Shown here piece after piece: positions 14,285-44,262 of a DNA stretch of 45,933 nt. A program made the translations under genes and the position numbers. How positions within the stretch are numbered: position 1 is the first letter of the stretch; each line of letters starts with the position of its first letter. The notes beneath the pieces were generated by a model. The model saw nothing but the letters and a program-made list of their open reading frames with translations. It was not told the origin of the DNA and made no database searches. The DNA is from Actinomycetota bacterium. Lineage in GTDB: Bacteria; Actinomycetota; Acidimicrobiia; IMCC26256; VFJJ01. Location of the stretch: NCBI GenBank assembly GCA_009886115.1, contig VFJJ01000035.1, positions 1 to 45,933 on the forward strand, read 5' to 3'.

Positions 14285-14435
14285 CCCATTCTCACCCTCA
14301 GGGACGACTTTAGCGACATGGGGGGTTCGCGCACTACGTACCGTGTCGGGGTAGTCTGCACCTAGAGCGGTTGGCACGAGACCAGCACCTTCGGGGGAGG
14401 GTGGGTCCAAAACGGCCGACGGAGGAGCACACAAG

Positions 14436-16073: not shown

Positions 16074-17687
16074 GTGAAGGAGATCGTCGGCATCATGGTG
16101 GAATCGGACGAGGCTCGATCGTTGGGGCCTGGCGCGCGCCACCTGCTGCTGGTCGCCGGCGCCGTGGCGGTCGTGGTGTCGATGGGATCCATGGTCGCGG
16201 TCGGATCTGCGCTGTGGCTCGACGAGGCCCTCTCGGTCGAGATCGCGCGTCTGCCCCTCGGAGATCTCGAGCAGGCGCTGAGGATCGACGGGGCCCCGCC
16301 GCTGTACTACGTGCTGCTCCACGCCTGGATGTCGATCTTCGGCGACGGCGACACGGCGGTCAGGGGCCTGTCGGCCGTCTTCGCCGTCGGCACCCTGCCC
16401 CTGGCGTGGTACGCCGGCCGCCGCATCGGCGGAGCCTCGGGGGCGGTCGCCGCGGTGCTGGTGTTCGCCACCTCGCCGTACCTCGTTCGATACGGGTCCG
16501 AGACCCGCATGTACTCCGCAGTGATCTTCCTGGTGGTCGCCGGGTACCTCGCCATCGTGCGGGCGTGGGAGCGACCGTCGTCATACGGTCGGCTTGCCCT
16601 GCTCGGCGCGATCTGCGGGCTGCTCGTGCTCACGCAGTACTGGGCGCTCTACCTGTTGCTGGCCACGGGGCTCGTGCTCGTCCGCGCCGCGTGGCGCCCC
16701 CGGGAGCCGGCGCTTCGGCGCACCGCCGTCCGGGTGCTCGCAGCCGCGGTGATCGGCTCCGTCGTCTTCATGGCGCCGTGGCTGCCGACGTTCCTCTACC
16801 AGCGGGCGCACACGGGTACGCCCTGGGGACGCCCGGTCCAGCCCTTCCAGGCGTTCATCGACAGCATCACCGACTTCGGGGGTCCCGGCGGGGTCATCAA
16901 GCCCCAGGACACCACGCTCGGAATCATCCTGCTCCTGCTCGGGGTGGTGGCGTTGTTCGCCGTGGGGATCGACGGCCGACGGCTGGAGGTCGACCTCCGG
17001 ACCCGGCCCGCAGCCCGTCCGCTCGCGTTCGTCGCCACGGCCACGCTGACCATCGGCGTCGTGCTGGGGCGCGTCTCGGGGGTGGCCTTCCAGCCCCGCT
17101 ACGCAGCGGTGATCTTCCCGCTGTTCCTGCTGCTCGTGGTGATGGGGCTCATGCAGCTCCGTGACGAGCCGATCCGAGCCGGGGTGCTCGCTGTCGTCGT
17201 CGCCATGGGGCTCTTCGGCGTGGGCCGCAACCTCGTCGTCGACCGGACCCAGGCCGCCGAGCTCGCCGCGGCGATCAATCGTGACGCCGTCCCCGGCGAC
17301 GTGGTCGTGTACTGCCCCGACCAGCTCGGTCCCGACACGCATCGCCTCATCGACGACGAGCTGATCGCCGGGGGACTCGTCGAGGTCACGTTCCCTGACC
17401 TCGAGCCGCCGACCCGCATCAACTGGGTCAGGTACGCCGAGCGCAACGCCATCGGTGGCGAGGCCGTCGCCGCCGTCGCCCAGCGGGTCGTCGAGCGGGC
17501 CACCCCGACCGGTGCCGTCTGGCTCGTGTGGAACCCGACCTACAAGCACCTCGAGGGTCGCTGCGAGCAACTGATCGACGGGCTCAACGCGCAACGCCCG
17601 GGCCTCGAGCAGCGGATCGTGGGCGCCGACACGGCGCTCTACGAGAACGCATACCTGTACCGCTGGGCTCCGGTGACGGTTCCGTGA
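16074..17687 (+). CDS. GT-C membrane glycosyltransferase (PMT/ArnT-like, GT39/83 type)
   Basis: LWLDEA.S, D..PPLYY.LLH.W, R.LS, E.RMYS, multiple TM helices, PRY, soluble C-terminal domain. Confidence 0.85.
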   Translation: MKEIVGIMVESDEARSLGPGARHLLLVAGAVAVVVSMGSMVAVGSALWLDEALSVEIARLPLGDLEQALRIDGAPPLYYVLLHAWMSIFGDGDTAVRGLSAVFAVGTLPLAWYAGRRIGGASGAVAAVLVFATSPYLVRYGSETRMYSAVIFLVVAGYLAIVRAWERPSSYGRLALLGAICGLLVLTQYWALYLLLATGLVLVRAAWRPREPALRRTAVRVLAAAVIGSVVFMAPWLPTFLYQRAHTGTPWGRPVQPFQAFIDSITDFGGPGGVIKPQDTTLGIILLLLGVVALFAVGIDGRRLEVDLRTRPAARPLAFVATATLTIGVVLGRVSGVAFQPRYAAVIFPLFLLLVVMGLMQLRDEPIRAGVLAVVVAMGLFGVGRNLVVDRTQAAELAAAINRDAVPGDVVVYCPDQLGPDTHRLIDDELIAGGLVEVTFPDLEPPTRINWVRYAERNAIGGEAVAAVAQRVVERATPTGAVWLVWNPTYKHLEGRCEQLIDGLNAQRPGLEQRIVGADTALYENAYLYRWAPVTVP

Positions 17688-18928
17688 GCCTCGTCGCCGG
17701 GGTGATCCGACGCGCGAGGGTCCGGGCTCGCGCCCGTGTCGTCGCCTTCGTGCACGAGCGGGCGCCGGAGCTCCCGGGCGCGTCGGCGCCGAGGCGGTCC
17801 TGGAAGTGCGACGCCCGGGCCGTCGTGCCGGCCTGGGTGCTCACCCGGTTGGTCGTGCTCGGATCGCTGGGCTTCTCCCACGTCGTCTACAACCGGTTCG
17901 AGGAACAGAACCCGGGCGTCGGGCTCCGGGCGCCCGTCCAGCTCCGCGACGGGTTGGTCGCCTGGGACGGCACCTGGTATCGCGACATCGCCGACGGGGG
18001 CTACGAGGCCACGAGCAACGTGCGCGAAGGTCTCCGGTTCTTCCCGCTCTGGCCGGTGCTGGGCAAGGTCTTCTCGTACCCGTTCGGTGGCAACACCAAC
18101 GTGTCGCTCGTGGTGCTCGCCAACGTCATCGCCTTCGCCCTCCTCGTCGTGCTCTACCGGTTCGTGGCCCTCGAACGGGGTGTCGAGCTCGCATCGCGCG
18201 CGGTCTGGTTGCTGTCGATCGCACCGCTGGCCTTCGTGCTCGTGCTGGCCTACAGCGAAGCCCTGTCGATGACCTTGACGGTGCTCTCGTTCTGGGCGCT
18301 GCGGACCCGGCGCTGGCGGTGGGCTGCGCTGTTCGGCTTCTTCGTGGGCCTCACGCGTCCCTTCGGGCTGCTGCTGGCGATCCCGGCGTTCGTCGAAGGC
18401 CTGCGCGGCATCGCCACCTCGGGGTGGCGCGACCGGGCCTGGCGTCTGGTCCCGGCGGTGGCTCCGGCCGTGGGGTGCGGCGTCTATCTCTCATGGGTCA
18501 AGGCCGAGCACGATTCCTTCCTCCTGCCGTTTCGCATCCAGTCGAAGGCGTTCGGCCGGGGCTTCGACTACCCATGGGCCCGTTGGTGGCGGGCGTTCCA
18601 CGACGGTGTCACCGGCAACGTCAACGAGATCCTCCACGCCGGCTGGGTCGTGGTGCTCGTGGTGCTGATCGTGGTGCTGGCCCGGCGCTGGCCGGCCTCG
18701 TACACGTGGTTCTGCGTCGCCGTGCTCCTGGTCGCCGTCAGCGCCGACAACATCAACTCAGCCGAGCGCTACTGCCTCTCGGCGTTCCCGTTCATCCTGG
18801 CGGCGGCCGAGTTGACCGTGAATCCTCGACTCGTCCGATGGCGCCTCGACGTGCTCGTCGCTCCGCTGGCCGTCACCGGCCTCACGGTGTACTCGGTGCT
18901 CACCTTCCTCGGCGGATACGTTCCCTAG
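17684..18928 (+). CDS. GT-C mannosyltransferase-like protein (PIG-V/GT76-like)
   Basis: WDGTWY.DIA..GY, FFPLWP, AYSEAL, TRPFG, ERY; GTGA overlap with the upstream stop. Confidence 0.82.
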   Translation: MSLVAGVIRRARVRARARVVAFVHERAPELPGASAPRRSWKCDARAVVPAWVLTRLVVLGSLGFSHVVYNRFEEQNPGVGLRAPVQLRDGLVAWDGTWYRDIADGGYEATSNVREGLRFFPLWPVLGKVFSYPFGGNTNVSLVVLANVIAFALLVVLYRFVALERGVELASRAVWLLSIAPLAFVLVLAYSEALSMTLTVLSFWALRTRRWRWAALFGFFVGLTRPFGLLLAIPAFVEGLRGIATSGWRDRAWRLVPAVAPAVGCGVYLSWVKAEHDSFLLPFRIQSKAFGRGFDYPWARWWRAFHDGVTGNVNEILHAGWVVVLVVLIVVLARRWPASYTWFCVAVLLVAVSADNINSAERYCLSAFPFILAAAELTVNPRLVRWRLDVLVAPLAVTGLTVYSVLTFLGGYVP

Positions 18929-19073
18929 ACGCGGACACCGTCGCCCGAGCGTGCCCGTGCCGGTTGTGGCGGTTGTGGACGGTGATTCGGGGGTCAGCCT
19001 GGGCGTTCGCGTAGCCTGATCTCGTTCGCCGCCGCTCCGGTCGGACCCTGAGATCACATCCGAGGAACGCTCC

Positions 19074-20531
19074 ATGACGACACCCGCGCCTGCACCCGGC
19101 GACCTCAAGGTCGTCATCATCGGTGCCGGCCCTGCCGGCCTCACCGCTGCCTATCAACTGGGCAAGGCCGGTGTGACCTCGACGATCCTCGAATCCGACG
19201 ACGTCGTCGGCGGCATCAGCCGGACGGTCGTTCGCGACGGCTGGCGCTTCGACATCGGCGGCCACCGGTTCTTCACCAAGGTCCGCCCCGTCGAAGACCT
19301 CTGGTTCGAGATCCTGGGCAAGGACGACTTCCTGCTCCGACCTCGGCTGAGTCGCATCTTCTACAAGGGCAAGATGTTCGACTACCCGCTCCGGGCCAAG
19401 AACGCCCTGTTCGGCCTGGGGCTGCTCGAGGCGTTCCTGTGCGTCATGTCGTACATCTGGGTGCGCATCCGTCCGCCGAAGGACCAGACGAACTTCGAGG
19501 GTTTCGTCGCCTCCCGGTTCGGCTGGCGTCTGTACCGGACCTTCTTCAAGACCTACACCGAGAAGGTCTGGGGCATGAAGGCCACCGAGATCCAGGCCGA
19601 CTGGGGCGCCCAGCGCATCAAGAACCTGTCGCTGTTTCGCGCCGTCTGGGAGTCGCTCAAGCCCCAGAGCTTCCGCCTGCGCAACAAGGACAAGTCCAAG
19701 CAGGTGACGAGCCTCATCGAGGAGTTCAACTACCCGAAGTACGGCCCGGGCATGATGTGGGAACGTTGTCATGAGCTCTGCGAGGCCCAGGGTTCGAAGG
19801 TCTGGTTCAACAGCCGGGTCACCACCGTCCATCATGACGGCGGACGGGTCACCGGTGTCACGGCGCTGGTCGACGGAGTGCCCACCCGCATCGAGGCCAC
19901 CCACGTCATCTCGTCGATGCCCATCAGCCATCTGCTCCAGGGCATGGACCCCCCGGCGCCGGCCGAGGTGGTCTCAGCAGCCGGCGGGCTCGCCTACCGT
20001 GACTTCATGACCGTCGCCCTGGTCGTGCCCGAGGAGTTCGGCTTCCCCGACAACTGGATCTACATCCACGACCCCGCGGTCTCGGTCGGGCGCATCCAGA
20101 ACTTCGGGCAGTGGTCGCCGTACCTCGTCAAGGAAGGCCGCACCTGTCTCGGTCTCGAGTACTTCGTCTTCGAGGGCGACGACATGTGGACCAAGTCCGA
20201 CGCCGACCTCGTCGAGCAGGGCAAGCGGGAGTTGACGAAGCTGGGGCTGGTCGACGGCACCAAGGTCGAGGCCGGCTACGTGGTGCGCATCCCCAAGGCC
20301 TATCCCACCTATGACGGGAGCTACAAGGCCAACATCGAGACCATGCGCGGGTGGCTCGATGCCAACGTCGCCGGCGTGTACCCCACCGGGCGCAACGGCA
20401 TGCACAAGTACAACAACCAGGACCACTCGATGTACACCGCCATGCTCTCGGTCGAGAACATCCTCGGTCAGGGCGACCACGACGTGTGGACGGTCAACGT
20501 CGAGGAGGAGTACCACGAGGAAAAGGCCTGA
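19074..20531 (+). CDS. FAD-dependent oxidoreductase, UDP-galactopyranose mutase-like
   Basis: IIGAGPAGLTAA FAD motif, GG.SRT, DIGGHRFF, YT.KVWG, F.YPK.G, AYP.Y, GRNGMHKYNNQDHSM. Confidence 0.75.
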   Translation: MTTPAPAPGDLKVVIIGAGPAGLTAAYQLGKAGVTSTILESDDVVGGISRTVVRDGWRFDIGGHRFFTKVRPVEDLWFEILGKDDFLLRPRLSRIFYKGKMFDYPLRAKNALFGLGLLEAFLCVMSYIWVRIRPPKDQTNFEGFVASRFGWRLYRTFFKTYTEKVWGMKATEIQADWGAQRIKNLSLFRAVWESLKPQSFRLRNKDKSKQVTSLIEEFNYPKYGPGMMWERCHELCEAQGSKVWFNSRVTTVHHDGGRVTGVTALVDGVPTRIEATHVISSMPISHLLQGMDPPAPAEVVSAAGGLAYRDFMTVALVVPEEFGFPDNWIYIHDPAVSVGRIQNFGQWSPYLVKEGRTCLGLEYFVFEGDDMWTKSDADLVEQGKRELTKLGLVDGTKVEAGYVVRIPKAYPTYDGSYKANIETMRGWLDANVAGVYPTGRNGMHKYNNQDHSMYTAMLSVENILGQGDHDVWTVNVEEEYHEEKA

Positions 20532-20538
20532 CCTGTCG

Positions 20539-21474
20539 GTGCCCGCTCGACGCCTCATCGCTGGGTTGGCCGCGGTCGCGCTCTCGGGCGGGCTGGGAGC
20601 CTGTGAGTATCCGGGCTTCGGCGATTCCGAGCCCAAGGCCGCCGACTCCGGGGCCGAAGGGAGCGTCGCCGCCATCCCTGCGCCCGTGGAACACGCGGTG
20701 GAGGCTCTCGAGGGCGAGCCGGCGTCGGTGGTGATCGAGGCCGCACCGATGATCGAGACGGGCGCGGCCCCGCTCGTCCCGGAGCGGGTCATGTTCGTCG
20801 GCGATTCCGTGATGGGTGAGGTCGCGCTCTCGGCCGGCGCTGCCCTCTCGGCCAGCGTCGGAACCACATCGGTGGGGCACCGGCTGCAGGTGGGCGTGCT
20901 CGGTCTCGGCGACGGCTGGCGCGAGCGTTGGGCGAGCGATCTCGCCGGGCTCCGTCCCGACACCGTCGTCGTGATGGTGGGTCCGTGGGATCTCAACGAC
21001 GCCACCCGCCCCGATGGCACGGTGTGGCGTCTGGGCGATCCCGGCTTCCTCGACTGGTACCGTGCCGAGCTGCACGCCTGGGTCGACACGCTCACCGCGT
21101 CCGGCTCGGAGGTGCTCTGGCTCAGCGTCCCGCCCGTTCGTGACGCGGTCCTGGCGGCACAGCTCCAGCCGATCGACGCCGAGTTCCGGTTGCTGGCGGC
21201 CGATCGCCCCGATGTCGAGTACCTCGACACTGCCATCCTGGTGGGCGATCCGTCAGGCGCCTACCTCGAGCGAGATCCGGCGTCGAACGTCGCCCTGCGC
21301 ATGACCGACGGGTTGCACCTGTGCCCGGAAGGGGCGGCCCGGATCGCCGACGCCGTGGTCGCTCACCTGGGCGTGGGACCGATCGACCCGGCCGCGTGGC
21401 GCGACGGGGCCTGGCGCCTCGATGCCGAGCGCTTCGACCCGGCCAACTGCCCCGAGCCCGCGCCAACCATCTGA
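20539..21474 (+). CDS. SGNH/GDSL-family lipoprotein (paralog 1)
   Basis: Lipobox LGAC after a hydrophobic stretch; FVGDSV; DGLH; GTG start 7 nt after the upstream stop. Confidence 0.8.
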   Translation: MPARRLIAGLAAVALSGGLGACEYPGFGDSEPKAADSGAEGSVAAIPAPVEHAVEALEGEPASVVIEAAPMIETGAAPLVPERVMFVGDSVMGEVALSAGAALSASVGTTSVGHRLQVGVLGLGDGWRERWASDLAGLRPDTVVVMVGPWDLNDATRPDGTVWRLGDPGFLDWYRAELHAWVDTLTASGSEVLWLSVPPVRDAVLAAQLQPIDAEFRLLAADRPDVEYLDTAILVGDPSGAYLERDPASNVALRMTDGLHLCPEGAARIADAVVAHLGVGPIDPAAWRDGAWRLDAERFDPANCPEPAPTI

Positions 21475-21559
21475 GCACCTGTCAGGTGTCGGGTTCAGGG
21501 CCCGTTCAACGCACAGTGCTCGGCCTGGGGGCGGGGGCAGCCCGTACGATCTCGGGTTG

Positions 21560-24280
21560 ATGACGGCGACCGTTCCCGACACTGTGATCGCTCCGGGGCC
21601 GGGAGCGCCGCCGGCCGTCGCTCGACCCCAGTTCTCCTGCCTCGACGGCCTGCGCGCCATCGCGGCGCTCAGCGTGCTCGCCCACCACGTGGGCTTCGAC
21701 ACGGGGGCGACGTTCCGGCACGCTGGCGCGGGCGAGTTCCTCGCCCGTATGGACATCGGCGTCTCGGTCTTCTTCGCGCTCTCGGGATTCCTGCTCTACC
21801 GCCCCATGGTCACAGCGATCGTGGAGGGACGTCCGCTCGTGCCGCTCGGCGAATTCTGGAAGCGCCGGGTGCTGCGGATCTTTCCCGCCTATTGGCTGGC
21901 CCTGTTCGTGATCGTGGTCGCCTTCGGTCGCACGCTCAGCGACATCGGTGACGTCGTGGTGCTCGGGGGGTTGTTGCAGATCTACGACGAGAGCCGCTTC
22001 TTCGGGGGTCTCGTCCAGGCCTGGAGCCTGAGCACCGAGATCAGCTTCTACCTGCTGTTGCCCTTGTACGCCTTGGTGATTCGGCGTCGGCTGGCCGGCC
22101 GCTCAGCCGAGCAGCGGCTCCGGTTCCAACTCGGAGCGATCGTCGTGCTGTACCTCGCGGGCCTGGCCTGGCGGATGCTCCTGCTCGGCGCCGACCCTCC
22201 GGGGATCGCCCGCATCGGCCTCCACTGGCTCCCCGGCCAGATCGACCACTTCGCGATCGGCATGGCGCTGGCGGTGGTGTCGGTGTGGGCCGGCCGTTCC
22301 CCGGCGGTGGCCGAGCGCCTCGAGCGCTCCACTACGCGCCCGTGGATCTGGTGGTCGGGGGCGGCCGCCGCGTTCTGGGCCGTGAGCGTGCCGCTCGACG
22401 TCCCCGGGGGGCTGGCGCAGATCCCGGCCGGGACCGACCTGGTCCGCCAGTTCCTCTACGGACTGGTGGCCTTCTTGCTCTTGGCCCCGGTGATCGTCGA
22501 ACCCGGGGTCCGGGGCGGCTCCGGCGGCTCCGGCGGCTCCGGTGGTCGCTCGGGCATCAGGCGATTCCTCGCGCATCCGGTCATGTGGTGGATGGGCGTG
22601 ATGTCGTACGGGATTTACCTGTGGCACAAGGACCTGATCCCCAAGGTGCAACTGCTGCTCGGGTGGGAGAACTTCCAAGGCAACTGGTTCGTGGTCTTCG
22701 GCATCACGCTGGCGGCCAGCACCGCGATCGCCGCGCTGAGCTACTACCTGCTCGAGCAGCCGCTGATCGCCCGCAAACACGGCCGCGCCGCCCGACCGGC
22801 GACGGTGTGGACGGGCCTCCTGCCCGACGCCGATGCGGACGCCGATGCGGACGCCGACGCGGACGCCGAGGCGGGCGCGGTACCCGGTGCGGTGGCCGTG
22901 CTGCCCGGGCGCAGGCCCCGAGCTGGCGACGGGGCCGAGCATCGCCCCACGTTCTGGCGGCGGGTGATCGTCGTCACGCTCGTCGGGCTGGTGCTGCGGA
23001 TGGCGTACCTGTGGTTCTCTCGTCGGGGCATCTACGACTGCCCGCCCGAGACCCTGCTCGGGTGCGCCGGCGACTCGTACGTGTACCACACGGGCGCCAA
23101 CCTCATCGCCGACGGTCAGGGGTTCGTGTCGCCGCTGGGCCTGCTCGACGGCAACCGCTTCCCCGGCGCCGATCATCCGCCGCTGTACTGGCTGTACCTG
23201 GCGGCGTACTCGTTCGTCGGCCTCGACAGCTACACCTGGCATCAGATGGCCACGGTGCTCGCCGGGGTCGCGGCGATCCCGGTGGCGGCCCTGGTGGGCC
23301 GCGAGCTCGGGGGTGTGCGGGTCGGGCTGGCGGCGGCGATCGCCGTGGCGCTGTACCCGAACATCTGGATCAACGACGCGCTCGTGCTGTCGGAGACCCT
23401 CACGATCCTGCTCGTCCTCGTGGCACTACTGGCCACCTACCGGGTGTGGCGACAGCCGTCGGCCGCGAACGTGGCCCTTCTCGGACTCGCCGGTGCTGCC
23501 GGTGCTCTCACCCGGGCCGAGGTGGTGCTCGTGTACCCGTTCGTCGTGCTGCCGCTGCTGGCTCGGCACCGTGCCCTGGCCACGTGGGGGCGACGGATCG
23601 CCCTGCTGGCTCTGGCGGGCGGCGTCGGCCTCGCCGCCATGGCGCCCTGGCTGATTCGCAACCAGCGCCAGTTCGAGGAGCCGGTGTACCTCTCCACGGG
23701 GCTCGGTGTCACGCTGCGCTACGCCAACTGCGACCAGACGTATTCCGGTCGGCTCATCGGCTATTGGTGGTTCGAGTGCAAGGGCGATGTCGACCTGCAG
23801 GCCCTCGCCGACCAGTCGGTGCTCGACAAGGCCTTGCGCTCGCAGGCCATCGACTACATCGAGGCCCACAAGAATCGGCTCCCGGCCGTGCTCGCGGCCC
23901 GTTTCGGGCGCACGTGGGGCCTCTACAAGGTCAACCAGATCGCCTACCTCGACACGTTCGAGCACCGACCGCTGTGGGCGACGCGCCTGGGCGCGATCAG
24001 CTTGTACCCGGCCATGGCCTTCGCCGCCTTGGGCATGCTCGTGCTGCGCCGCCGCCGAGTTCCCGTGTACCCGTTGCTCGTCCCGCTTGGAATCGTCACC
24101 TTTGCCGTGCTCTTGACCTTCTCCCAGACCCGGTACCGCTCGACGGCGGAGGGGTCCCTGGCGGTGCTCGCTGCCGTCGGCATGCTGCGGACGGTCGAGG
24201 TGGCTCGGGCTCGCCGTCAGCGAGGCCGGGGGTCGGGATCGGTCGCCGACCGGCAGCCTTCGCCGCCGTCCCAGGCGTAG
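21560..24280 (+). CDS. Fusion of an AT3 acyltransferase (N-terminal) and a GT-C glycosyltransferase (C-terminal)
   Basis: AT3 motifs LDGLRAIAA...H, VSVFFALSGFLL, R.LRIFPAY, WSLSTEISFY, SYGIYLWH, YYLLEQP; (DA)n linker; then GDS..YH, DHPPLY, LSETL, TRAE, PW.IRN, RYR; no in-frame stop. Confidence 0.85.
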   Translation: MTATVPDTVIAPGPGAPPAVARPQFSCLDGLRAIAALSVLAHHVGFDTGATFRHAGAGEFLARMDIGVSVFFALSGFLLYRPMVTAIVEGRPLVPLGEFWKRRVLRIFPAYWLALFVIVVAFGRTLSDIGDVVVLGGLLQIYDESRFFGGLVQAWSLSTEISFYLLLPLYALVIRRRLAGRSAEQRLRFQLGAIVVLYLAGLAWRMLLLGADPPGIARIGLHWLPGQIDHFAIGMALAVVSVWAGRSPAVAERLERSTTRPWIWWSGAAAAFWAVSVPLDVPGGLAQIPAGTDLVRQFLYGLVAFLLLAPVIVEPGVRGGSGGSGGSGGRSGIRRFLAHPVMWWMGVMSYGIYLWHKDLIPKVQLLLGWENFQGNWFVVFGITLAASTAIAALSYYLLEQPLIARKHGRAARPATVWTGLLPDADADADADADADAEAGAVPGAVAVLPGRRPRAGDGAEHRPTFWRRVIVVTLVGLVLRMAYLWFSRRGIYDCPPETLLGCAGDSYVYHTGANLIADGQGFVSPLGLLDGNRFPGADHPPLYWLYLAAYSFVGLDSYTWHQMATVLAGVAAIPVAALVGRELGGVRVGLAAAIAVALYPNIWINDALVLSETLTILLVLVALLATYRVWRQPSAANVALLGLAGAAGALTRAEVVLVYPFVVLPLLARHRALATWGRRIALLALAGGVGLAAMAPWLIRNQRQFEEPVYLSTGLGVTLRYANCDQTYSGRLIGYWWFECKGDVDLQALADQSVLDKALRSQAIDYIEAHKNRLPAVLAARFGRTWGLYKVNQIAYLDTFEHRPLWATRLGAISLYPAMAFAALGMLVLRRRRVPVYPLLVPLGIVTFAVLLTFSQTRYRSTAEGSLAVLAAVGMLRTVEVARARRQRGRGSGSVADRQPSPPSQA

Positions 24281-25203: not shown

Positions 25204-25312
25204 GCCGCCAAGTATCTCGCGTTGACGCGGGTGCGTTCGATGGCGACGGGCGATGTGCGTGGTTCGCGCGGTCACGGTGGTCGCGGGAGGCTCCCGGCTA
25301 TCGTCGCCCGTC

Positions 25313-27739: not shown

Positions 27740-27769
27740 GGCCCCATGCTGTCATGCGCCAGGAGAGTG

Positions 27770-31305: not shown

Positions 31306-31490
31306 CTGGTGGATGCTCCTGGTGGATCACAGGGCCGCTCGGCGTCCGCTCAGGCTACCGGCCGACAGCCGTGCGCCCTGAGGCACTCCGACCCTTCCGG
31401 GGAGGTTGTTCTTGCTTGTCCCGATCATTCTCGGCTCTCGGAGGCTGCGCTACCCTCGGCGGTTCTTGCCCCTCTCGCCGGAGGCCGTCG

Positions 31491-32765
31491 TTGGCGCCCT
31501 CGCCCGAGTACCGCCCGTCCACCCGACAGACCCGTGACCCCGAGGCGACGCTCGACCTCGGCTTGGCCTCGGGCGCGCTCGGCGACATCGCCGCCGAGGC
31601 CGGCCTGCGGCGGATCAACATGCTCGCGTGGCGCGATCTCGACGATCCCGAGGCCGGCGGCAGTGAGATCCACGCCGACCACATCGCCCGTCTCTGGTCC
31701 GCCGCCGGTATCGACGTCTCGGTGCGCACCTCGGGCGTCGTCGGGGCTCCGGCGCACGTCGACCGCTCGGGCTATCACGCTCTCCGGGCGGGTGGACGCT
31801 ACGGCGTGTTCCCCCGGGCTGCTGCGGCCGAGGCGCTCGGACGGCACGGCCCTCGCGACGGCCTGGTGGAGATCTGGAACGGCATGCCGTTCTTCTCGCC
31901 GTTGTGGGCCCGGGGGCCGCGGATCGTCTTCTGCCATCACGTGCACGCCGAGATGTGGCGGATGGTGCTGCCGCCGTGGAAGGCCCGCATCGGTGAGTTG
32001 ATCGAGTTCCGCCTCGCTCCTCCGCTGTACCGCGGTACCCGGATCGTGACGCTCTCGTCGTCGTCGCGCGACGAGCTGGTCGGCGACCTGGGCTTCCGTG
32101 AGGAGCTGGTGACCGTGGTGGCGCCGGGGATCGACCCGAAGTTCCGTCCCGGGGGCCGGCGATCGCAGCACCCGTCGGTGGTCGCCGTGGGTCGGCTCGA
32201 GCCCGTCAAGCGGTTCGATCTGCTCGTCGACGCCCTCGCCGAGCTCCGACGGCGTCATCCGGCGTTGCAAGCGACCATCATCGGCGAAGGCAGCGAGCGG
32301 GATGCGCTCGAGGCGCAGATCGCCGCGCTCGGTGCGTCGGAGTGGCTGCGACTTCCCGGACGGGTCGACGACGACACGCTCGTGAGGGCCTACCAAGAGG
32401 CGTGGACCGTGGTGTCGACGTCGAAGCGCGAGGGCTGGGGCATGACCCTCACCGAGGCCGCGGCCTGCGCGACGCCGGCCGTCGCGTCACGCATCGCCGG
32501 TCACGAGGACAGCGTCGAGCACGGGGTGAGCGGGCTGCTGGCGACCGACGACGAGTTCGTGACCCGTCTCGACGCCGTGCTCGGTGAGCCCGAGCTGCGA
32601 GATGCCCTGTCGCGTGGCGCCGAGGCCCGTGCCGCCCGATTCACCTGGCAGGCCACAGCCGAGGGAACCTTGACGGCCCTTGCCCACGAGGCGCACCGGT
32701 ATCGCCACCGGGCCCGGAACGCCCAGCGCCGGCACAGCTTTCGCAGGACGCCACCGTCCGAGTGA
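31491..32765 (+). CDS. GT4-family glycosyltransferase
   Basis: WRDL..PEAGGSE, HHVH, VGRL.P.KR, EGWGMTLTEA (Ex7E), P.VA; start codon uncertain. Confidence 0.88.
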   Translation: MAPSPEYRPSTRQTRDPEATLDLGLASGALGDIAAEAGLRRINMLAWRDLDDPEAGGSEIHADHIARLWSAAGIDVSVRTSGVVGAPAHVDRSGYHALRAGGRYGVFPRAAAAEALGRHGPRDGLVEIWNGMPFFSPLWARGPRIVFCHHVHAEMWRMVLPPWKARIGELIEFRLAPPLYRGTRIVTLSSSSRDELVGDLGFREELVTVVAPGIDPKFRPGGRRSQHPSVVAVGRLEPVKRFDLLVDALAELRRRHPALQATIIGEGSERDALEAQIAALGASEWLRLPGRVDDDTLVRAYQEAWTVVSTSKREGWGMTLTEAAACATPAVASRIAGHEDSVEHGVSGLLATDDEFVTRLDAVLGEPELRDALSRGAEARAARFTWQATAEGTLTALAHEAHRYRHRARNAQRRHSFRRTPPSE

Positions 32766-35700
32766 GCCCGGCTCCGAACCCCCAGGCGCTCGTCGCGCGG
32801 CTGCGACGCCGGCGAGGTCGGTCGAACCGGCCCGTCGCCGATCGGATCCGAGCCCGGCGTCGCCGTCGTGAGCGTTACGGGCCCGTCGCCCTCCTCGCCG
32901 TGGTCGCCTACGTTCCCTTGCTCCTGACAGCGAGGGGCCAGGTCGGCGCCGACACCAAGCAGTACCTGTATCTCGATCCCGGCCGGCTCCTCGAGCGGGC
33001 ACCGTCGCTGTGGGATCCCCACGTGGGCTTCGGCACGGTGACCCACCAGAACATCGGCTATCTCTGGCCGATGGGGCCCTACTACTGGCTCCTCGAGCGG
33101 CTCGGCGCGCCCGACTGGGTGGCCCAGCGCCTCTGGCTGGGATCGCTGTTGCTCTTCGCCGGCGCCGGGGTGCTCTGGCTGGCCCGGATGCTCGGACCGT
33201 TCGGCGAGCGCCGCAACCGGGGGGCCGCGGCCGTGGCCGCGCTCGTCTACATGCTCACGCCGTACACGCTCACCTATGCGGCCCGGATCTCTGCGATCCT
33301 GCTGCCGTACGCCGGACTGCCGTGGATGCTCGGCCTCGTCGTGGCGGCCCTGCGGCGAGAGGCAGCCGTTGTCGAGGAGCGGGCTGCGAAGCGCGACGCG
33401 GAGTCGGCCCAGCTCGAAGCGACGTCGATTGCCGAGGCCGGCTCCACCGGTCATCACCATCTGCCGTCGCTGTGGTCGGCGGTGCGGCACGTGCTCACGC
33501 GTTGGCGGCTCCCTGCCATCTTCGCACTGCTCGTCACCACGGTGGGCTCGGTCAACGCGACCGCCCTCATCTACGTGGGGCTGGCGCCGGCGCTCTGGTT
33601 CCCCTACGCGATCTGGTTCAACCGCGAGGTGCGCCCCCGTCAGGCGATCGGCGTCCTCGTGCGCATCGCGGTGCTCACCACCGTGACGCAGCTCTGGTGG
33701 ATCGCCGGCCTGCGCACCCAGGCTGGCTGGGGGCTCCCGGTCCTCGAGTTCACCGAGACGGTCGAGACTGTCTCGGAGACGGCGGTGAGCTCCGAGGTCG
33801 TCCGCGGCCTCGGCAACTGGTTCTTCTACGGCCACGACCGTCTGGGCGCCTGGATCGAGCCGTCGCTCCGGTACACCCAGGACGTCTGGCTCATCGCGAC
33901 GAGCTTCGCCATACCAGTCCTGGCCTTCGTGGCCGCCGCGTACACGCGTTGGAAGCATCGCCTGTACTTCATGGTGCTGTTCGCCGTGGGCGTGATATGC
34001 GCCGTCGGGACCCATCCCTACGACGATCCATCGCCGCTCGGGCGCGTGTTCAAGGCCGCGGCCGAAGGCTCGACGGCGGGGCTGGCGATGCGCTCCTCGC
34101 CCCGTGCGGCACCACTCGTGGCCCTGGCGCTGGCGTTCATGATCGGCACGGGTCTCGTCGCGCTCGGCCACTGGGCCACCGAGCGGCTGATTGCCGTGCG
34201 TCGCCCCCCGCGCGTGCGATGGCAACGCGTCCCCGTGCTGGCCACGTTGGCCGTCGGACTGTTGGCGGTGGTCAATGCCGCTCCGCTGTGGACGGGCACC
34301 GTGATCGGAGGGAATCTCCAACGTCCCGAGGATCTCCCCGAGTATTGGATCGCCGCGGCGGCAGCCCTCGACGCTGATCGTTCGACCGCCGCTCCGACTG
34401 CCGGCTCGACGGCTGGTTCCGAGCTCGACGGCGCCCTCGGCTCCACCGGCCCGGTCACTCGGGTCCTCGAGCTCCCGGGTTCAGACTTCGCGTCGTACCG
34501 GTGGGGCAACACGGTGGATCCGATCACCCCGGGGCTCATCGAGCGCCCCTGGGCCGCGCGCGAGCTGATCCCGTTCGGCTCCGCGGCGTCCGCCGATCTG
34601 CTCATCGCCCTCGATCGCCGGCTCCAGGAGGGCGTGCTCGACATCGACGCCATTGCGCCGATCGCCCGACTCCTCGGTGTCGGCGACATCGTGCTGCGTT
34701 CCGACCTCCAGTACGAGCGCTACCGCACCCCCCGGCCCCGCCCGACCTGGGACCGGTTCCTCGCGGCCGACGGGCTCCTGGCGCCCGAGTCGTTCGGAGA
34801 TCCGGTCCCGAACCGGGCTTCCAGCAAGCAGCCCATGATCGACGAGACCGAGCTCGCCATCCCGACGGATGCCCCCCATCCGCCTCCGGTGGCGATCTTC
34901 CCGGTCGCCGACAGCCGACCGATCGTCCGGGCGGAGCCCGTCGAGCAGCCGATCATCGTCGCCGGCGATGGCGAGGGCCTCGTCGACGCCGCCGCTGCGG
35001 GCCTGCTCGACGGCGATGCCGTCGTGGTCTACAGCGGCGACGTCACCGGCGATCTCGATCGTCTCCGCACGAGCTTCATGGCCGAGGGTGCCGACCTGGT
35101 CGTGACCGACAGCAACCGGCGTCGAGGTCAGCGGTGGGGGACGATCCGCGAGAACCTCGGCTACACCGAAGAAGCCGGCGAGCAGCCGCTGGTGGTCGAC
35201 CAGAAGGACAACCGCAACGAGGTGTTCCCCGACCGCGGCGACGAGGTCAAGACGGTCGCCGAGTACGACGGTGTCGCCTCGGTGCAGGCGTCGCACTACG
35301 GGAACCCGGTCTCGTACACACCCGAGGAACGCCCGGTCAACGCCTTCGACGGGAACCTCAGCACGCAATGGCGGGTGGGGGCGTTCGACGACGTCGACGG
35401 CGAGCGCATCGTGCTGCGCACCGATGCTCCGGTGGCCGCCGATCGGATCAACCTCGTGCAGCCCTTGTCCCCCTTGGGGAATCGGACCATCGCCCATGCG
35501 ACGGTGCGCTTCTTCGACGATGCCGGACGTGGGGTTGGCGCTCCGGTCGAGGTGGTGCTGGGCGCGTCGTCGCTCGAAGCGGTGGGCCAGGAGGTGCCGT
35601 TCGAGCGGCGCACGTTCTCTCGCATGGAGATCACCGTCGATCGCACCGACCTGGGCGATCTCGACGACTACCGCGGCGTCAGCGGCGTCGGCTTCGCCGA

Positions 35701-37657
35701 GATCCGGCTCTTCGACGGCGATCACCTGCCCGACGCGGACCCGGTCGTTCGTGCCCGCGAGGTCATCCGCCTGCCGGGTGACCTCCTCGCCGCTGTCACC
35801 GCGGCCGGTGGACCCGGAGCTTCCCTCGACCACCGGCTCGTGATCGTGATGTCGCGTCTGCGAGCCAACCCGGCCGAGCTGTTCCGATCCGATCCCGAGC
35901 TTGCGCTCGCCCGCCGGTTCGATCTGCCCGACGGGCGGTCGTTCGCCCTCACCGGCCAGGCCCGGATCTCTGATGCCGTGGCTGACGACGCGCTCGATGC
36001 TCTGCTCGGCCGCCCGGGCCTGGCCGAGGGCGCGCCCGTCGCCCGATCGTCCGACCGTCTGGCCGGCGCGCTGCGAGCCCGGGCCTCGGCGGCCTTCGAC
36101 GGCGACCCGACGACTGCGTGGACCCCCGGCCTCCACGAGCAGGTGGGGCAGTGGATCGAGATCGAGGCGCCGGCGCCCGTCACCTTCGACCGCATCGATC
36201 TCGTGGTCGTGGCCGACGGGCGCCACACGGTGCCGACGCGCATCCGGCTCGAACCCGACGGCGCCGACCCGGTCTCGCTCGAGCTCCCGCCGGTTCCCGA
36301 CGGAGCCGCCGAGAACGCGACGGCTCCGATGACCGTGACGCTGCCGTCGGCGATCACCGCGTCGAAGGTCAGGATCGTGATCGAGGCCACACGCATCGTC
36401 ACCGCGCGCGACGGTGGCGGTCTGGCCCAGCTCCCGGTCTCGCTGGCCGAGGTCGGGATTCCCGGCGTCACCATGGTCGCCGTCGCCGACTCGTTCCCCG
36501 CGGTGTGTCGTGACGATCTGCTCACGATCGATGGCCGTGGTGTCGGGGTGCTCGTCTCGGGCTCGACCGCCGACGCGCTCGACGGCGCGGGCCTCGATGT
36601 CGAGGCGTGCGTGGCCGAGGGCGTCACGCCGGTGATCGAGCTGGCTGCGGGTGAGCACGAGGTGCAGACGGCCGACCGGGCGATCGTGCCCCTCCAGCTC
36701 GACCGGCTCGAGCTGCGCTCCGACATCGGTGGTGCCCTTCCCGGCGCGGCGATGCTCCGGGCGTGGCCATCGCAGTTCGAGCCGGCGCCGGTGGTGGAGA
36801 TCCTCGAGAGCGATGCGACCTCGTTCGAGCTCGAGGTCTCGGGTGCGACCGATCCCTTCTGGCTCGTGCTGGGTCAGAGCCACAACGACGGTTGGGAGGC
36901 CGTGCTCTCCTCGGGTGCCCGCCTGGAAGGACCGCAGCGCTTCGACGGCTTCGCCAACGCATGGCATGTCGTGCCGGCCAGCGAAGGCGGGACCTTCAGG
37001 GTCGCCCTCGAGTGGGAGCCACAGCGCCTGGTCTGGGGCGCGTTGGCGACATCGTCGGTCGGCGCCGCCCTGTGCCTGTTGATCGTGGTCGGGGGCTGGC
37101 AGCGGGGTCGGCGTCGGCTCTGGGCGGCCCCGGAGGTGTCGGAGGCCGCCGACGGGCCCGTGGGCGACACCGATCGGGTGGAGGTTCGCGTCGACGCTGG
37201 GCCGGTGCTGCGCCCCGAGCAGATCACGCCGCCGCGTCCGTCGCGTACGGTGCTGGCTGCTCTCGCCGCTGGCGGCGCCACCGCAGCAGTCGTCGATCCC
37301 GTGTGGGGACTGGCCCTGATGGCGCTCACGGGGTGTGCGCTGCACCTCGGCGTGTGGTGGGCCCGGCTCCCGATACGGGTGCTGCCCTGGCTGATCGTCG
37401 CCGTGAGCGGGGCCTCGGTGGCGGCGCGTCAGCTCCGCAGCGGATTCCCCCTCGAGTTCGCCTGGACCTCGAACTTCGAGGCCCTGCACCAGCCCGTGTT
37501 GTTCGCCATGATGGTGCTCGTGGTCGATGTTGTCATCGAACGGTTCGCGAACCCGGCGGACGGCCGTGCTTCACGGCGACGGGTCAGGCTCGATCGCGGC
37601 GCCGGCGAGCCCATTCCGAGCATTGCCGGAGCCGATCGCGAACCCCCCAGATCGTGA
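32762..37657 (+). CDS. AftD-like alpha-(1->3)-arabinofuranosyltransferase family protein (DUF3367 GT-C + discoidin/CBM32-like domains)
   Basis: ADTK..LY.DP, LWDP...G...HQ..GYL.PMGP, W..QRLW, P.YW, Y.WG...D; two AFDG...T.W modules; C-terminal N.GW.A..DGFAN.W and TM helices; 1631 aa. Confidence 0.85.
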   Translation: MSPAPNPQALVARLRRRRGRSNRPVADRIRARRRRRERYGPVALLAVVAYVPLLLTARGQVGADTKQYLYLDPGRLLERAPSLWDPHVGFGTVTHQNIGYLWPMGPYYWLLERLGAPDWVAQRLWLGSLLLFAGAGVLWLARMLGPFGERRNRGAAAVAALVYMLTPYTLTYAARISAILLPYAGLPWMLGLVVAALRREAAVVEERAAKRDAESAQLEATSIAEAGSTGHHHLPSLWSAVRHVLTRWRLPAIFALLVTTVGSVNATALIYVGLAPALWFPYAIWFNREVRPRQAIGVLVRIAVLTTVTQLWWIAGLRTQAGWGLPVLEFTETVETVSETAVSSEVVRGLGNWFFYGHDRLGAWIEPSLRYTQDVWLIATSFAIPVLAFVAAAYTRWKHRLYFMVLFAVGVICAVGTHPYDDPSPLGRVFKAAAEGSTAGLAMRSSPRAAPLVALALAFMIGTGLVALGHWATERLIAVRRPPRVRWQRVPVLATLAVGLLAVVNAAPLWTGTVIGGNLQRPEDLPEYWIAAAAALDADRSTAAPTAGSTAGSELDGALGSTGPVTRVLELPGSDFASYRWGNTVDPITPGLIERPWAARELIPFGSAASADLLIALDRRLQEGVLDIDAIAPIARLLGVGDIVLRSDLQYERYRTPRPRPTWDRFLAADGLLAPESFGDPVPNRASSKQPMIDETELAIPTDAPHPPPVAIFPVADSRPIVRAEPVEQPIIVAGDGEGLVDAAAAGLLDGDAVVVYSGDVTGDLDRLRTSFMAEGADLVVTDSNRRRGQRWGTIRENLGYTEEAGEQPLVVDQKDNRNEVFPDRGDEVKTVAEYDGVASVQASHYGNPVSYTPEERPVNAFDGNLSTQWRVGAFDDVDGERIVLRTDAPVAADRINLVQPLSPLGNRTIAHATVRFFDDAGRGVGAPVEVVLGASSLEAVGQEVPFERRTFSRMEITVDRTDLGDLDDYRGVSGVGFAEIRLFDGDHLPDADPVVRAREVIRLPGDLLAAVTAAGGPGASLDHRLVIVMSRLRANPAELFRSDPELALARRFDLPDGRSFALTGQARISDAVADDALDALLGRPGLAEGAPVARSSDRLAGALRARASAAFDGDPTTAWTPGLHEQVGQWIEIEAPAPVTFDRIDLVVVADGRHTVPTRIRLEPDGADPVSLELPPVPDGAAENATAPMTVTLPSAITASKVRIVIEATRIVTARDGGGLAQLPVSLAEVGIPGVTMVAVADSFPAVCRDDLLTIDGRGVGVLVSGSTADALDGAGLDVEACVAEGVTPVIELAAGEHEVQTADRAIVPLQLDRLELRSDIGGALPGAAMLRAWPSQFEPAPVVEILESDATSFELEVSGATDPFWLVLGQSHNDGWEAVLSSGARLEGPQRFDGFANAWHVVPASEGGTFRVALEWEPQRLVWGALATSSVGAALCLLIVVGGWQRGRRRLWAAPEVSEAADGPVGDTDRVEVRVDAGPVLRPEQITPPRPSRTVLAALAAGGATAAVVDPVWGLALMALTGCALHLGVWWARLPIRVLPWLIVAVSGASVAARQLRSGFPLEFAWTSNFEALHQPVLFAMMVLVVDVVIERFANPADGRASRRRVRLDRGAGEPIPSIAGADREPPRS

Positions 37658-38453
37658 CCAGGGTGAGCGCTTCGCCCACGATCCTCCACGACATCTTCGA
37701 GTCGCCCCGGGCCCGCTCCCTGAAGGTGATCGGCACCTCGCTCATGGTCGCGCCCAGGCGGTGGAAGCGATACGCCATCTCCACCTGGAACGCGTAGCCC
37801 GACGAGCGCACCCCGGTGAGGTCGAGGGTCCCGAGGATCGAGCCCCGGTACGCCCGGAACCCGGCGGTCGCGTCACGGAGCGGGAACCCGAGCATCACAC
37901 GGGCGTACCAGTTCCCGGCCCGGGAGATGAGCTCCCGGTTGCGTGGCCAGTCGACCACCGAGCCGCCCTCGACCCATCGGGATCCGATCACCAGGTCGGC
38001 ACCGGCATCGATCGCGGCGAAGAGCGACGGCAGGACCAACGGATCGTGTGAGAGGTCGGCGTCCATCTCGACGATCGTCTCGTAGTCGCGCTCCAGACCC
38101 CACCGGAACCCGGCGCAGTAGGCCGCGCCGAGCCCGTTCTTCTCGGTCCGACGCAGCACGTCGATGCCGCCGAGCAACTCGCGCTGCTTGTCGGCCAGGT
38201 CGGCCGTCCCGTCGGGACTGCCGTCGTCGACGACGAGCACGTGGGCGCTCGGGACCGCTGCCCTGATGCGGCCGAGGATCTCCTCGACGTTCAACGCCTC
38301 GTTGTACGTGGGCAGCACCACCAACTGGCGCAAGGGGGCGGGGATCGGGGCCGGGGCCGCGTGGTCGAGGGCGCGCTCGTCCGAGTCGTCGCGGTCAGAT
38401 CCGTGTGACGTGGCGGCACCGTCGGTCGACGCGCCCTCCTGCGGCTGCTTCAT
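37584..38453 (-). CDS. Polyprenol-phosphate mannose synthase-like GT2 (Ppm1/Dpm1 family)
   Basis: VLPTYNE..N, VDDGSPDGT, GLG.AY..GF, EMDAD.SH, IGSRWV.GG, D.TAGFR.Y, GY.FQVEM, F.ER..G.SKMS. Confidence 0.9.
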   Translation of the reverse strand: MKQPQEGASTDGAATSHGSDRDDSDERALDHAAPAPIPAPLRQLVVLPTYNEALNVEEILGRIRAAVPSAHVLVVDDGSPDGTADLADKQRELLGGIDVLRRTEKNGLGAAYCAGFRWGLERDYETIVEMDADLSHDPLVLPSLFAAIDAGADLVIGSRWVEGGSVVDWPRNRELISRAGNWYARVMLGFPLRDATAGFRAYRGSILGTLDLTGVRSSGYAFQVEMAYRFHRLGATMSEVPITFRERARGDSKMSWRIVGEALTLVTIWGVRDRLRQCSEWARRRRDRA

Positions 38454-38484
38454 GGAGGCCCGAGCATAGGGGTCGATGCTCCGG

Positions 38485-42819: not shown

Positions 42820-42855
42820 GGATCGACGCTCCCTTGCTCGTTTGCTCCCGAAATT

Positions 42856-42896
42856 TGTGCAGAAATCGTCGCCAGGCGACGATTTCTGCACACAGA
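42856..42896. repeat. REP-like palindrome, copy 2
   Basis: 41 bp identical to positions 15-55, in the divergent gap between the crotonase and the L,D-transpeptidase. Confidence 0.9.
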
Positions 42897-42932
42897 TCGG
42901 CGGGTCTGTCACTCCTGATAGCTTTGGGGCCC

Positions 42933-44252: not shown

Positions 44253-44262
44253 CCCCCGCGGT

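Follow-up and report, generated by a model that had tools for sequence, protein, structure and literature searches.

This study examines a block of 13 contiguous genes (positions 16074-38672) within a 45,933-nucleotide stretch of DNA, hereafter the window, that covers positions 1 to 45,933 of contig VFJJ01000035.1 of the Actinomycetota bacterium assembly GCA_009886115.1. The block is probably a chromosomal cell-envelope glycan locus, in which a cytoplasmic family 4 glycosyltransferase (GT4; gene g11), an AftD-family membrane glycosyltransferase of the GT-C type (g12) and a TmaT-like acyltransferase of the AT3 family (g05) form a core that is the Acidimicrobiales counterpart of the Mycobacteriales tmaT/aftD locus; judging from homology, domain architecture and gene neighborhoods, we give this reading a probability of roughly 60%. 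The block extends this core with a sugar-donor module, a further four GT-C modules and a set of PatB-type SGNH proteins. Three of its features are new relative to the printed literature that was found, namely the covalent fusion of an AT3 domain to a PMT_2-type GT-C, the grouping of PatB-type SGNH proteins with AT3 rather than with MBOAT proteins, and the lack of a marker for decaprenyl-phospho-arabinose synthesis, a sign of some other furanose donor.

Reading frames were chosen by G+C content at third codon positions, since the window is 70% G+C, and domains were assigned with Pfam and NCBIfam. The genes of the block are as follows.

16074-17687, plus strand: g01, PMT_2-type GT-C of 537 amino acids (Pfam PF13231, E value 3e-13)
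17684-18928, plus strand: g02, PIG-V-like GT-C (Pfam PF04188, E 4e-5, just above the Pfam cut-off)
19074-20531, plus strand: g03, flavoprotein with an FAD/amine-oxidase fold resembling UDP-galactopyranose mutase (UGM) (NCBIfam NF005548, PRK07208.1-4, 752 bits, above cut-off)
20539-21474, plus strand: g04, free PatB/DUF459-type SGNH protein (Pfam PF04311, E 3e-24)
21422-24280, plus strand: g05, TmaT-like AT3 (residues ~70-455) fused to a PMT_2-type GT-C (~505-940), 952 amino acids (PF01757, E 2e-21; PF13231, E 2e-5)
24217-25377, minus strand: g06, free DUF459-type SGNH protein, start uncertain (PF04311, E 2e-23)
25253-26755, plus strand: g07, PMT_2-type GT-C, start uncertain (PF13231, E 9e-14)
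26675-27739, minus strand: g08, free DUF459-type SGNH protein (PF04311, E 1e-22)
27770-28912, minus strand: g09, free DUF459-type SGNH protein (PF04311, E 1e-26)
28909-31305, minus strand: g10, AT3-SGNH fusion of the OatA/OafA/SucT architecture (PF01757, E 1e-28; PF04311, E 3e-8)
31215-32765, plus strand: g11, cytoplasmic GT4 (Pfam PF00534, E 7e-33)
32762-37657, plus strand: g12, AftD-family GT-C of 1631 amino acids (PF11847, 314 bits; PF00754; PF24607)
37584-38672, minus strand: g13, family 2 glycosyltransferase (GT2) of the polyprenyl-phosphate-sugar-synthase type, start uncertain (Pfam PF00535, E 1e-25)

A preliminary description of the window had listed 13 genes with five GT-C-type modules, a GT4, a polyprenyl-phosphate sugar synthase (the GT2), a UGM-like flavoprotein, two AT3 domains and five SGNH domains, and the Pfam and frame analysis matched this inventory exactly: the GT-C modules are g01, g02, the C-terminal half of g05, g07 and g12, the AT3 domains are the N-terminal halves of g05 and g10, and the DUF459-type SGNH domains are g04, g06, g08, g09 and the C-terminal half of g10. 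Position 38453, where the block had earlier been ended, is an in-frame internal ATG of the last gene, g13.

Both the family-model match and the topology of g12 are those of the AftD family. The protein scores 314 bits against a PF11847 cut-off of 26, and its hydropathy peaks (residues 39-510 and 1426-1592) mark an N-terminal transmembrane domain and C-terminal transmembrane helices, with a large outer domain that carries F5/8 type C and CBM_AftD matches at residues 1093-1239. As a single sequence g12 matched the solved AftD weakly (E 1e-15), and a profile of 14 Acidimicrobiales homologues aligned to AftD 6w98 over about 810 residues (13-833 against 18-827) at E 4e-66. The available part of the AftD preprint describes the same topology and names E251, D474 and E475 of the Mycobacterium abscessus protein as the likeliest catalytic residues; the columns aligned to the first two hold E332 and D586, invariant in 14 of 14 sequences, and P587 stands at E475, in a mapping that assumes an inferred three-residue offset in numbering. 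No other AftD-family match is present in the genome.

According to the accessible portions of two July 2026 preprints, TmaT, an AT3 protein, and the GT-C enzyme AftD bind and depend on each other, forming a complex that is reported as essential in mycobacteria and corynebacteria and whose mode of cooperation is given there as not known. The conserved Mycobacteriales locus, described in the part of the Corynebacterium glutamicum preprint that was available, comprises aftD, tmaT, mmpA, lmcA/pgfA, a glycosyltransferase gene and mtrP. Among 121 genomes sampled across the phylum, 18 had an AftD-family match, and the surrounding 40 kb was taken in 10 of these, leaving out the genome studied here, G117, G123, G137, G140 and the weak matches in G032, G040 and G058. 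A GT4 resembling g11 lay near AftD in eight of the 10 regions, including all six from other classes, and was not found there in G062 or G134, while an AT3 lay near AftD in two. One of these two, G099, is regarded as a tmaT-type locus because it contains equivalog matches to MmpA (NF053599, 641 bits) and PgfA (NF053601) in the arrangement given in the preprint, with these two genes between the GT4 and the AT3 and with AftD in the same region. The GT4 of G099 is 37% identical to g11 (E 6e-54), and the AT3 in the TmaT position is 32% identical to the AT3 domain of g05 over 376 residues (E 1e-35) but matches g10 only at E 4e-7.

Because the GT4, the AftD-like protein and the g05 AT3 are all homologous to parts of the tmaT/aftD locus, the block is not wholly the undescribed system that it had been proposed to be. 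A one-to-one correspondence with a characterized locus was not found either. The two loci are alike in that the AT3 and GT-C proteins that form a physical pair in Mycobacteriales have a parallel in the single polypeptide g05. They differ in that the block lacks an MmpA/PgfA homologue and a mycolate context, that its AT3 is fused to a PMT_2-type GT-C instead of being bound to AftD, and that it contains additional GT-C modules, a UGM-like gene, a GT2 and five SGNH domains. The genome also has no DprE1-type marker, and a decaprenyl-phospho-arabinose donor is therefore unlikely.

The distribution of block genes across related genomes was examined through a scan with g12, which gave 79 distinct loci; domain-split block proteins were compared with these by tblastn, requiring at least 30% of the query to be covered. 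All 79 loci come from metagenome-assembled genomes labelled Acidimicrobiia, Acidimicrobiales, Microthrixaceae, Iamiaceae or Actinomycetota. The most commonly observed companion of AftD was the GT4 (57 loci), followed by GT2 (45), GT-C (37), AT3 (35), the UGM-like gene (15), DUF459 (6) and the PIG-V-like gene (5). Since many contigs are short, the 30 loci with at least 8 kb on each side were counted apart, and here the numbers were 28, 20, 16, 15, 7, 5 and 1, respectively. Of the 52 loci with both genes, 48 had the GT4 no more than 1.5 kb from the AftD match, and the position of the GT4 next to AftD is near-universal in Acidimicrobiales (28 of the 30 fully flanked loci). The nearest locus outside the genus, L065, contains PIG-V-like, g01-like, UGM-like, GT-C, GT4 and AftD genes together with two AT3-DUF459 genes and a free DUF459 gene, is bounded by unrelated genes and contains no exporter. 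The g01-g02-g03 module recurs in L058, in L065 and in G020, a single-contig genome of 2.46 Mb from the same order. On one strand (C1, loci L104-L105, concatenated coordinates 16736-33432), G020 carries a g07-like GT-C, g01, g02, the UGM-like g03, GT2, GT4 and AftD, with no AT3 or DUF459, and this compact cluster may show a minimal glycan pathway. Modules that recur across the order are thus combined here in a genus-specific way.

The g05 protein joins an acyltransferase and a glycosyltransferase in one chain. Its PMT_2 half scores just below the Pfam cut-off (25.2 against 26.1 bits), and the GT-C fold was assigned from an AlphaFold2 model built on a 24-sequence alignment (mean pLDDT 80.9, pTM 0.73). 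The model has two well-folded membrane domains and a disordered linker (residues 456-503), with residues 505-940 mostly above a pLDDT of 90. In a Foldseek search the C-terminal half matched AglB, PglB, STT3, Pmt4, ArnT and AftB (best E 2.6e-4, probability 1.00), and the N-terminal half matched HGSNAT, which has the AT3 fold according to the abstract of its report; for both halves the TM-scores were modest, 0.2-0.3 over the whole two-domain model. A PDB sequence search with g05 alone gave no useful match. The AT3 domain contains R78-X10-H89, FFALSG at 117-122 and R149xxR152, corresponding to the R/K-X10-H motif of the first transmembrane helix and the FFxISG-type and RxxR motifs named in the part of PMC7448272 that was available. 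The GT-C gene g07 is a paralogue of the C-terminal half of g05, with 48% identity.

Homologues of g05 (E 1e-10 or better among 8000 candidates scored) formed 93 clusters, which were typed by local BLAST against the three domain types. Fusions of AT3 with this GT-C type accounted for 69 of the 93 clusters and occurred in both domain orders: 41 GT-C-AT3, 26 AT3-GT-C, one GT-C-GT-C-AT3 and one GT-C-AT3-DUF459. The last, P0064, is a triple fusion with an SGNH domain that was confirmed by Pfam. The remaining clusters were AT3 only (18), AT3-SGNH, AT3-AT3 and GT-C only (two each). Source names were given for few of the clusters, and all were Acidimicrobiales or Microthrixaceae save for one weak Nitriliruptorales match. 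Two large clusters in the ESM Atlas contain the same two families, and g05 had matches in 24 of 31 related genomes, where AT3 and GT-C copies often stand in runs. A sister genome has its AT3 and GT-C halves at the ends of contigs, which fits a fusion broken by assembly without proving it. Fusion in both orders and the triple fusion provide Rosetta-stone evidence that AT3, this type of GT-C and the DUF459 domain act together. Literature searches, which covered few subscription journals and no supplements, found no description of AT3/GT-C fusions or of this type of locus.

Other partners of the AT3 domain were also seen among these sequences. In P0074, P0076, P0077, P0084 and P0086, relatives of the g05 AT3 are fused to a Wzy_C O-antigen-ligase with TPR, a phosphodiesterase/sulfatase, a methyltransferase or a second AT3. 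A Bacillota cluster of the ESM Atlas (~790 amino acids) combines AT3 with DUF6020 (PF19484) and may be an AT3/membrane-domain fusion outside Actinomycetota.

The five SGNH domains belong to the PatB/DUF459 family, with PF04311 E values of 1e-22 to 1e-26 for the free copies and 3e-8 for g10. Solved PatB structures (8tlb, 8gr2) match at E ~5e-5, with g09 aligning to 8tlb over residues 155-342. Four of the five domains (g04, g08, g09 and g10) keep the GDS and DGxH motifs. All four free proteins have signal or anchor N-termini, Pro/Thr/Ala-rich linkers and two conserved C-terminal cysteines; g08 and g09 carry N-terminal anchors, followed in g08 by a Pro/Thr-rich linker, and g04 and g06 are probably lipoproteins, as their LGAC and LAAC endings read as lipoboxes. 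Since they are only 32-40% identical to one another, the free copies are old duplicates. A search based on sequence words with g04 returned six homologous proteins. DUF459 is present in 28 of 31 Acidimicrobiales genomes, and copies of the block type lie beside AT3/GT-C runs in G007 and G022.

Within the minus-strand run g10-g09-g08, g10 stands first, is translationally coupled to g09, and is followed by g08 after a further 30 nt; if one AT3 serves several SGNH domains, this run is the best candidate. The g10 AT3 contains R48..H59, FFTLSG, RRARR and GGYLGVD, the last an instance of the GG-F/Y-xGV-D motif that PMC7448272, in the part available, reports in the first outer loop of SGNH-fused AT3 proteins. 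The triple fusion P0064 also has this motif (as GGFLGVS), and the AT3-DUF459 proteins P0070 and P0073 do not. In architecture and in its R-X10-H, FFxLSG, RxxR and GG-F/Y-xGV-D motifs g10 resembles OatA, OafA/OafB and SucT; it differs from them in that its SGNH part is of the DUF459 type and that four further SGNH proteins stand free in the block. Compared to PatA/PatB, the block has SGNH domains of the same family, tethered to the membrane outside the cell and in four of five cases retaining Ser and Asp-x-x-His, but these are grouped with AT3 and not with an MBOAT that has a C-terminal acyl-Tyr shuttle; Pfam scans of the block and its flanks found no MBOAT. A further difference lies in distribution, as the available part of a 2022 review of SGNH enzymes treats DUF459/PatB as a small, Gram-negative family working with the MBOAT protein PatA.

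The genome's only MBOAT lies on another contig, C110 (L106:2347-6084), where an MBOAT of 570 amino acids and a separate canonical DUF459 gene (about 200 bits, against 82-96 for the free block copies) stand on one strand, with a 165-amino-acid open reading frame between them that has a weak IS1595-type transposase domain match. The two genes form a PatA/PatB-like pair, here in an actinobacterium and apart from the block.

Two genes bear on the sugar donor, the flavoprotein g03 and the GT2 g13. The best PDB matches of g03 are eukaryote-type UGMs (4u8l, 3ute and 4dsg, E ~3e-19). The alignment with such enzymes, known from Aspergillus and Trypanosoma, is near full length (residues 12-472 against 4dsg), with about a quarter of the residues identical by eye, and the GGH loop, YPT and GRxGxxxY..NQDHS motifs are aligned with 3ute and 4dsg at residues that we take to be functional in UGM. 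By fold and motif g03 is a candidate nucleotide-sugar pyranose/furanose mutase. The best NCBIfam matches of g13 are all polyprenyl-phosphate-sugar synthases (Dol-P-hexose transferase, AglJ, PpgS and ArnC). In several loci and in G020 the UGM-like gene is directly beside a GT2.

A direct counterpart of mycobacterial arabinan synthesis was considered and rejected. The genome (5.45 Mb, 95.6% complete) has no match to PF04030 (DprE1-type ALO), for which the C. glutamicum control was positive, and none to PF03275 (GLF) or to GtrA (PF04138), for each of which control genomes were positive. In addition, the accessible description of a cultured Iamiaceae isolate, a different organism and therefore a weak guide, lists rhamnose, ribose, mannose and galactose among whole-cell sugars and no arabinose. 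The lack of a decaprenyl-phospho-arabinose marker points to another furanose donor, and the UGM-like gene is the only candidate furanose-forming enzyme seen, given that neither ALO nor GLF was matched. The suggestion that the glycan might contain furanose is plausible in light of the retained UGM motifs and of the mutase-like gene beside AftD-like genes in 15 of the 79 loci. A hexofuranose such as galactofuranose, carried on polyprenyl phosphate, is favored over arabinofuranose, and the same literature searches found no description of a polyprenyl-phospho-hexofuranose donor in bacteria. The combination of a synthase-type GT2 with GT-C enzymes resembles three-component glycosylation (Gtr, ArnC/ArnT, PpgS/Rv3779 and GT136 pentofuranose systems). 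However, the block has five GT-C modules instead of one and a hexose-type mutase where those systems use a phosphoribose route, and no GtrA or MATE flippase was found with it.

Several observations weigh against the reading of the block as a tmaT/aftD-like envelope locus or against parts of it. The organism is uncultured, and the gene roles proposed here come from family membership. No blastp or phmmer match at E 1e-2 linked MmpA or PgfA of G099 to any block protein, and the NCBIfam matches of g11 fall under their cut-offs. In g03, Lys occupies the position of the Arg of the FMRPY motif, which we take to contact the diphosphate in fungal UGM, and the family to which g03 belongs, PRK07208, bears the name "hypothetical protein." The top matches of g13 all agree on the enzyme type given in the preliminary description, but each is far below its equivalog cut-off (the best 58.6 bits against 375), so that polyprenyl-phosphate sugar synthase is a reading at the level of the family. 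No Wzx, Wzy, Wzz or ABC exporter family matched among the 22 flank open reading frames scanned, as had been noted earlier, and neither GtrA nor MATE was found in the window; with no flippase or exporter found there, the pathway as drawn is incomplete.

The acylation part faces objections of its own. All five block paralogues have another residue in place of the block III Asn of the SGNH fold, a further difference from PatB, and g06 has GDG in place of the GDS nucleophile motif while keeping Asp-x-x-His. Its orthologue in L007, a same-genus contig (88% identity), shares the change at 71% identity, so that g06 looks like a conserved non-catalytic copy, and with Gly in place of the catalytic Ser it cannot form an acyl-serine. 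The score of g10 against the SucT equivalog NF058601 is 110.6 bits, far under the cut-off of 1275, and g10 is thus not a SucT equivalog. The GG-F/Y-xGV-D motif is absent from the g05 AT3 and from all 67 AT3/GT-C fusions examined, which weakens a relay from g05 to the free SGNH proteins; being of the AT3-only type by motif, the g05 AT3 may acylate directly and not feed g04 or g06. The earlier idea of AT3 domains feeding a panel of free SGNH transferases accordingly stays at the level of proposal, with the coupling motif in one of the two AT3 domains and a missing nucleophile in one of the five SGNH domains. A complex prediction for the g05 AT3 (residues 60-480) with the g04 SGNH domain (75-311) gave 0.00 in both runs and, as the controls were not folded, has no bearing either way. 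Finally, the full gene set was seen among the 79 loci only in the same-genus L007. The modules co-occur elsewhere, both in the loci compared by tblastn and in other genomes, but the complete set of 13 does not, and only the GT4-AftD pair is near-universal, which speaks against a self-contained 13-gene system. What does hold from the preliminary description is the broader picture of an extracytoplasmic glycan-assembly and O-acylation locus, with GT-C, AT3 and membrane-tethered SGNH modules that recur together in other loci.

Domain identities, folds, catalytic motifs, synteny and fusions were observed directly, and a sequence of steps can be proposed from family membership. The soluble GT4 (g11) would act on a lipid-linked acceptor at the cytoplasmic face, the UGM-like flavoprotein (g03) would turn a nucleotide-pyranose into its furanose form, and the GT2 (g13) would load a sugar onto polyprenyl phosphate. 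After a flippase had moved the lipid-linked sugar across the membrane, the AftD-like protein (g12) and the other GT-C enzymes would extend the glycan outside. The AT3 domains would take acyl groups from acyl-CoA in the cytoplasm and deliver them to the outer face. From there, acyl groups may be passed to sugar hydroxyls directly by the TmaT-like AT3 of g05, fused next to its GT-C, or alternatively by way of Ser-His-Asp SGNH domains, namely that of g10 itself and those of the tethered g04, g08 and g09, with the serine-less g06 as a possible non-catalytic partner. Which glycan is the substrate, which sugar and acyl group are used and how acyl donors pair with acceptors are all inferred, and a wall glycan, a lipoglycan or a protein could serve as the acceptor.

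There are several potential alternative explanations for this combination of genes. It is possible, if unlikely, that two or more unrelated systems lie side by side, with g10 and the free PatB-type proteins O-acetylating peptidoglycan in the manner of OatA and PatB while the glycosyltransferases make a separate glycan. The AT3-SGNH design of g10 is that of OatA, characterized members of the DUF459 (PatB) family acetylate peptidoglycan, G020 has the glycosyltransferase set with neither AT3 nor DUF459, and only five of the 30 fully flanked AftD loci contain DUF459. However, a canonical MBOAT and DUF459 pair is already present elsewhere in this genome, on C110, where the DUF459 gene scores far above the block copies. 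Acylation genes are also interleaved with GT-C genes here and in L007, L065, G007 and G022, and the two activities share a polypeptide in the many AT3/GT-C fusion clusters and, together with DUF459, in P0064. A different role for the free DUF459 proteins, as esterases that remove or remodel O-acyl groups in the manner of Ape enzymes and not as acyl-receiving transferases, is similarly improbable. Most SGNH members are hydrolases according to the part of the literature available, and both the loss of the block III Asn, in which the paralogues depart from PatB, and the AT3-only, TmaT-like type of the g05 AT3 would suit such a role; nevertheless, among characterized proteins the transferase PatB is the closest relative, g10, P0064, P0070 and P0073 have this domain type fused to AT3, and g10 is translationally coupled to g09, with g08 close behind.

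It would be more surprising if the block served to glycosylate secreted or membrane proteins and then acylate them, with the PMT_2-type GT-C modules acting as protein O-glycosyltransferases. PMT_2 and PMT are families of protein O-mannosyltransferases, the fold search placed the g05 GT-C domain with oligosaccharyltransferases and Pmt4, and the block SGNH proteins carry Pro/Thr/Ala-rich linkers, which are typical targets of O-glycosylation in actinobacteria. The same fold search, however, also returned ArnT and AftB, whose acceptors are lipids or glycans, and both the conservation of the GT4 and the resemblance to the tmaT locus by homology point to an envelope glycan or lipid. In addition, the AftD-family enzyme has carbohydrate-binding modules and acts on polysaccharide in mycobacteria, as far as the available part of the AftD work describes. 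An envelope glycan locus with a tmaT/aftD-like core is the preferred reading.

The flanks of the block are given over to ordinary metabolism: ilvD, an ilvB-like gene, ilvC, plsY and genes for a flavin reductase and for GGDEF and TetR-like proteins on the left, and a menE-like ligase gene, hydrolases, an enoyl-CoA hydratase, an L,D-transpeptidase and an HTTM protein on the right. The possibility of a mobile island was rejected, since G+C content is even across the block (0.67-0.73), the flanks are housekeeping genes (ilv, plsY, men-like) and the right junction, a GT2 followed by the menE-like gene, is common to the same-genus L007. The clustering goes beyond chance, as five of the seven DUF459 matches of the genome lie within 9 kb in the block, which also contains its single AftD-family match. 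Over positions 18001-21000, around the UGM-like gene, G+C content drops to ~0.665, against 0.70-0.73 elsewhere in the block.

Several start codons in the block are uncertain. The longest g02 frame begins at 17528, and a GTG at 17684 shares the sequence GTGA with the stop of g01; the longest g04 frame begins at 20311, its database form (P0094) having 311 amino acids; and the true start of g11 is probably later than listed, because homology begins only at residue 131. Four-base overlaps occur at the g01/g02, g10/g09 (GTGA) and g11/g12 (GTGA) junctions. The g01 protein has ~9 transmembrane helices predicted from hydropathy and, by alignment, an LDEA motif after the first of these, and g02 matches NCBIfam NF046093 (cell surface glycopolymer formation protein) at E 1.6e-10, under its cut-off.

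Additional observations concern other genes. In L065 the gene right after the AftD-like one (14431-15177, plus strand) encodes a class I methyltransferase, and the mycobacterial tmaT locus also has a methyltransferase, MtrP. At 42834-45908 of the window (plus strand), a YkuD L,D-transpeptidase gene is followed by one for an HTTM-domain membrane protein (vitamin K-dependent carboxylase-like fold), beside the menE-like and enoyl-CoA hydratase genes of menaquinone type. The gene at 6413-8290 (plus strand) encodes a protein that combines a zinc ribbon with a PQQ/BamB-like beta-propeller; its neighbors are an alpha/beta hydrolase gene on one side and, on the other, the acetolactate-synthase-like gene of the ilv cluster.

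Proteins of the AT3 family carry acyl groups across membranes in all domains of life, and a review of the family asks how AT3-only members reach their acceptors and whether an SGNH protein or some other partner is required. That a TmaT-like AT3 occurs naturally fused to a GT-C, in either order and in one case together with an SGNH domain, gives independent evidence from evolution that such pairs work on a single substrate, and the fusions offer single-chain models from non-pathogens for structural and biochemical work. A more specific proposal is put forward tentatively and is doubtful as it stands: that Acidimicrobiales have "glycosylate-and-acylate" machines in which a TmaT-like AT3 joined to a GT-C, sometimes with a PatB-type SGNH domain, is the covalent counterpart of the TmaT-AftD complex, while the AftD-like enzyme draws not on decaprenyl-phospho-arabinose but on a polyprenyl-phospho-hexofuranose that the UGM-like mutase and the GT2 produce. 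If this is true, the partnership of AT3 and GT-C would be an old and general actinobacterial principle that couples the addition of sugars outside the membrane with acylation. The present findings suggest that the AftD/GT4/AT3 core predates the mycolate envelope, and they make PatB-type SGNH proteins common in a Gram-positive lineage. Members of the Acidimicrobiales are abundant in water, soil and sludge, and their envelope may contain a hitherto undescribed glycan that is acylated and possibly includes furanose.

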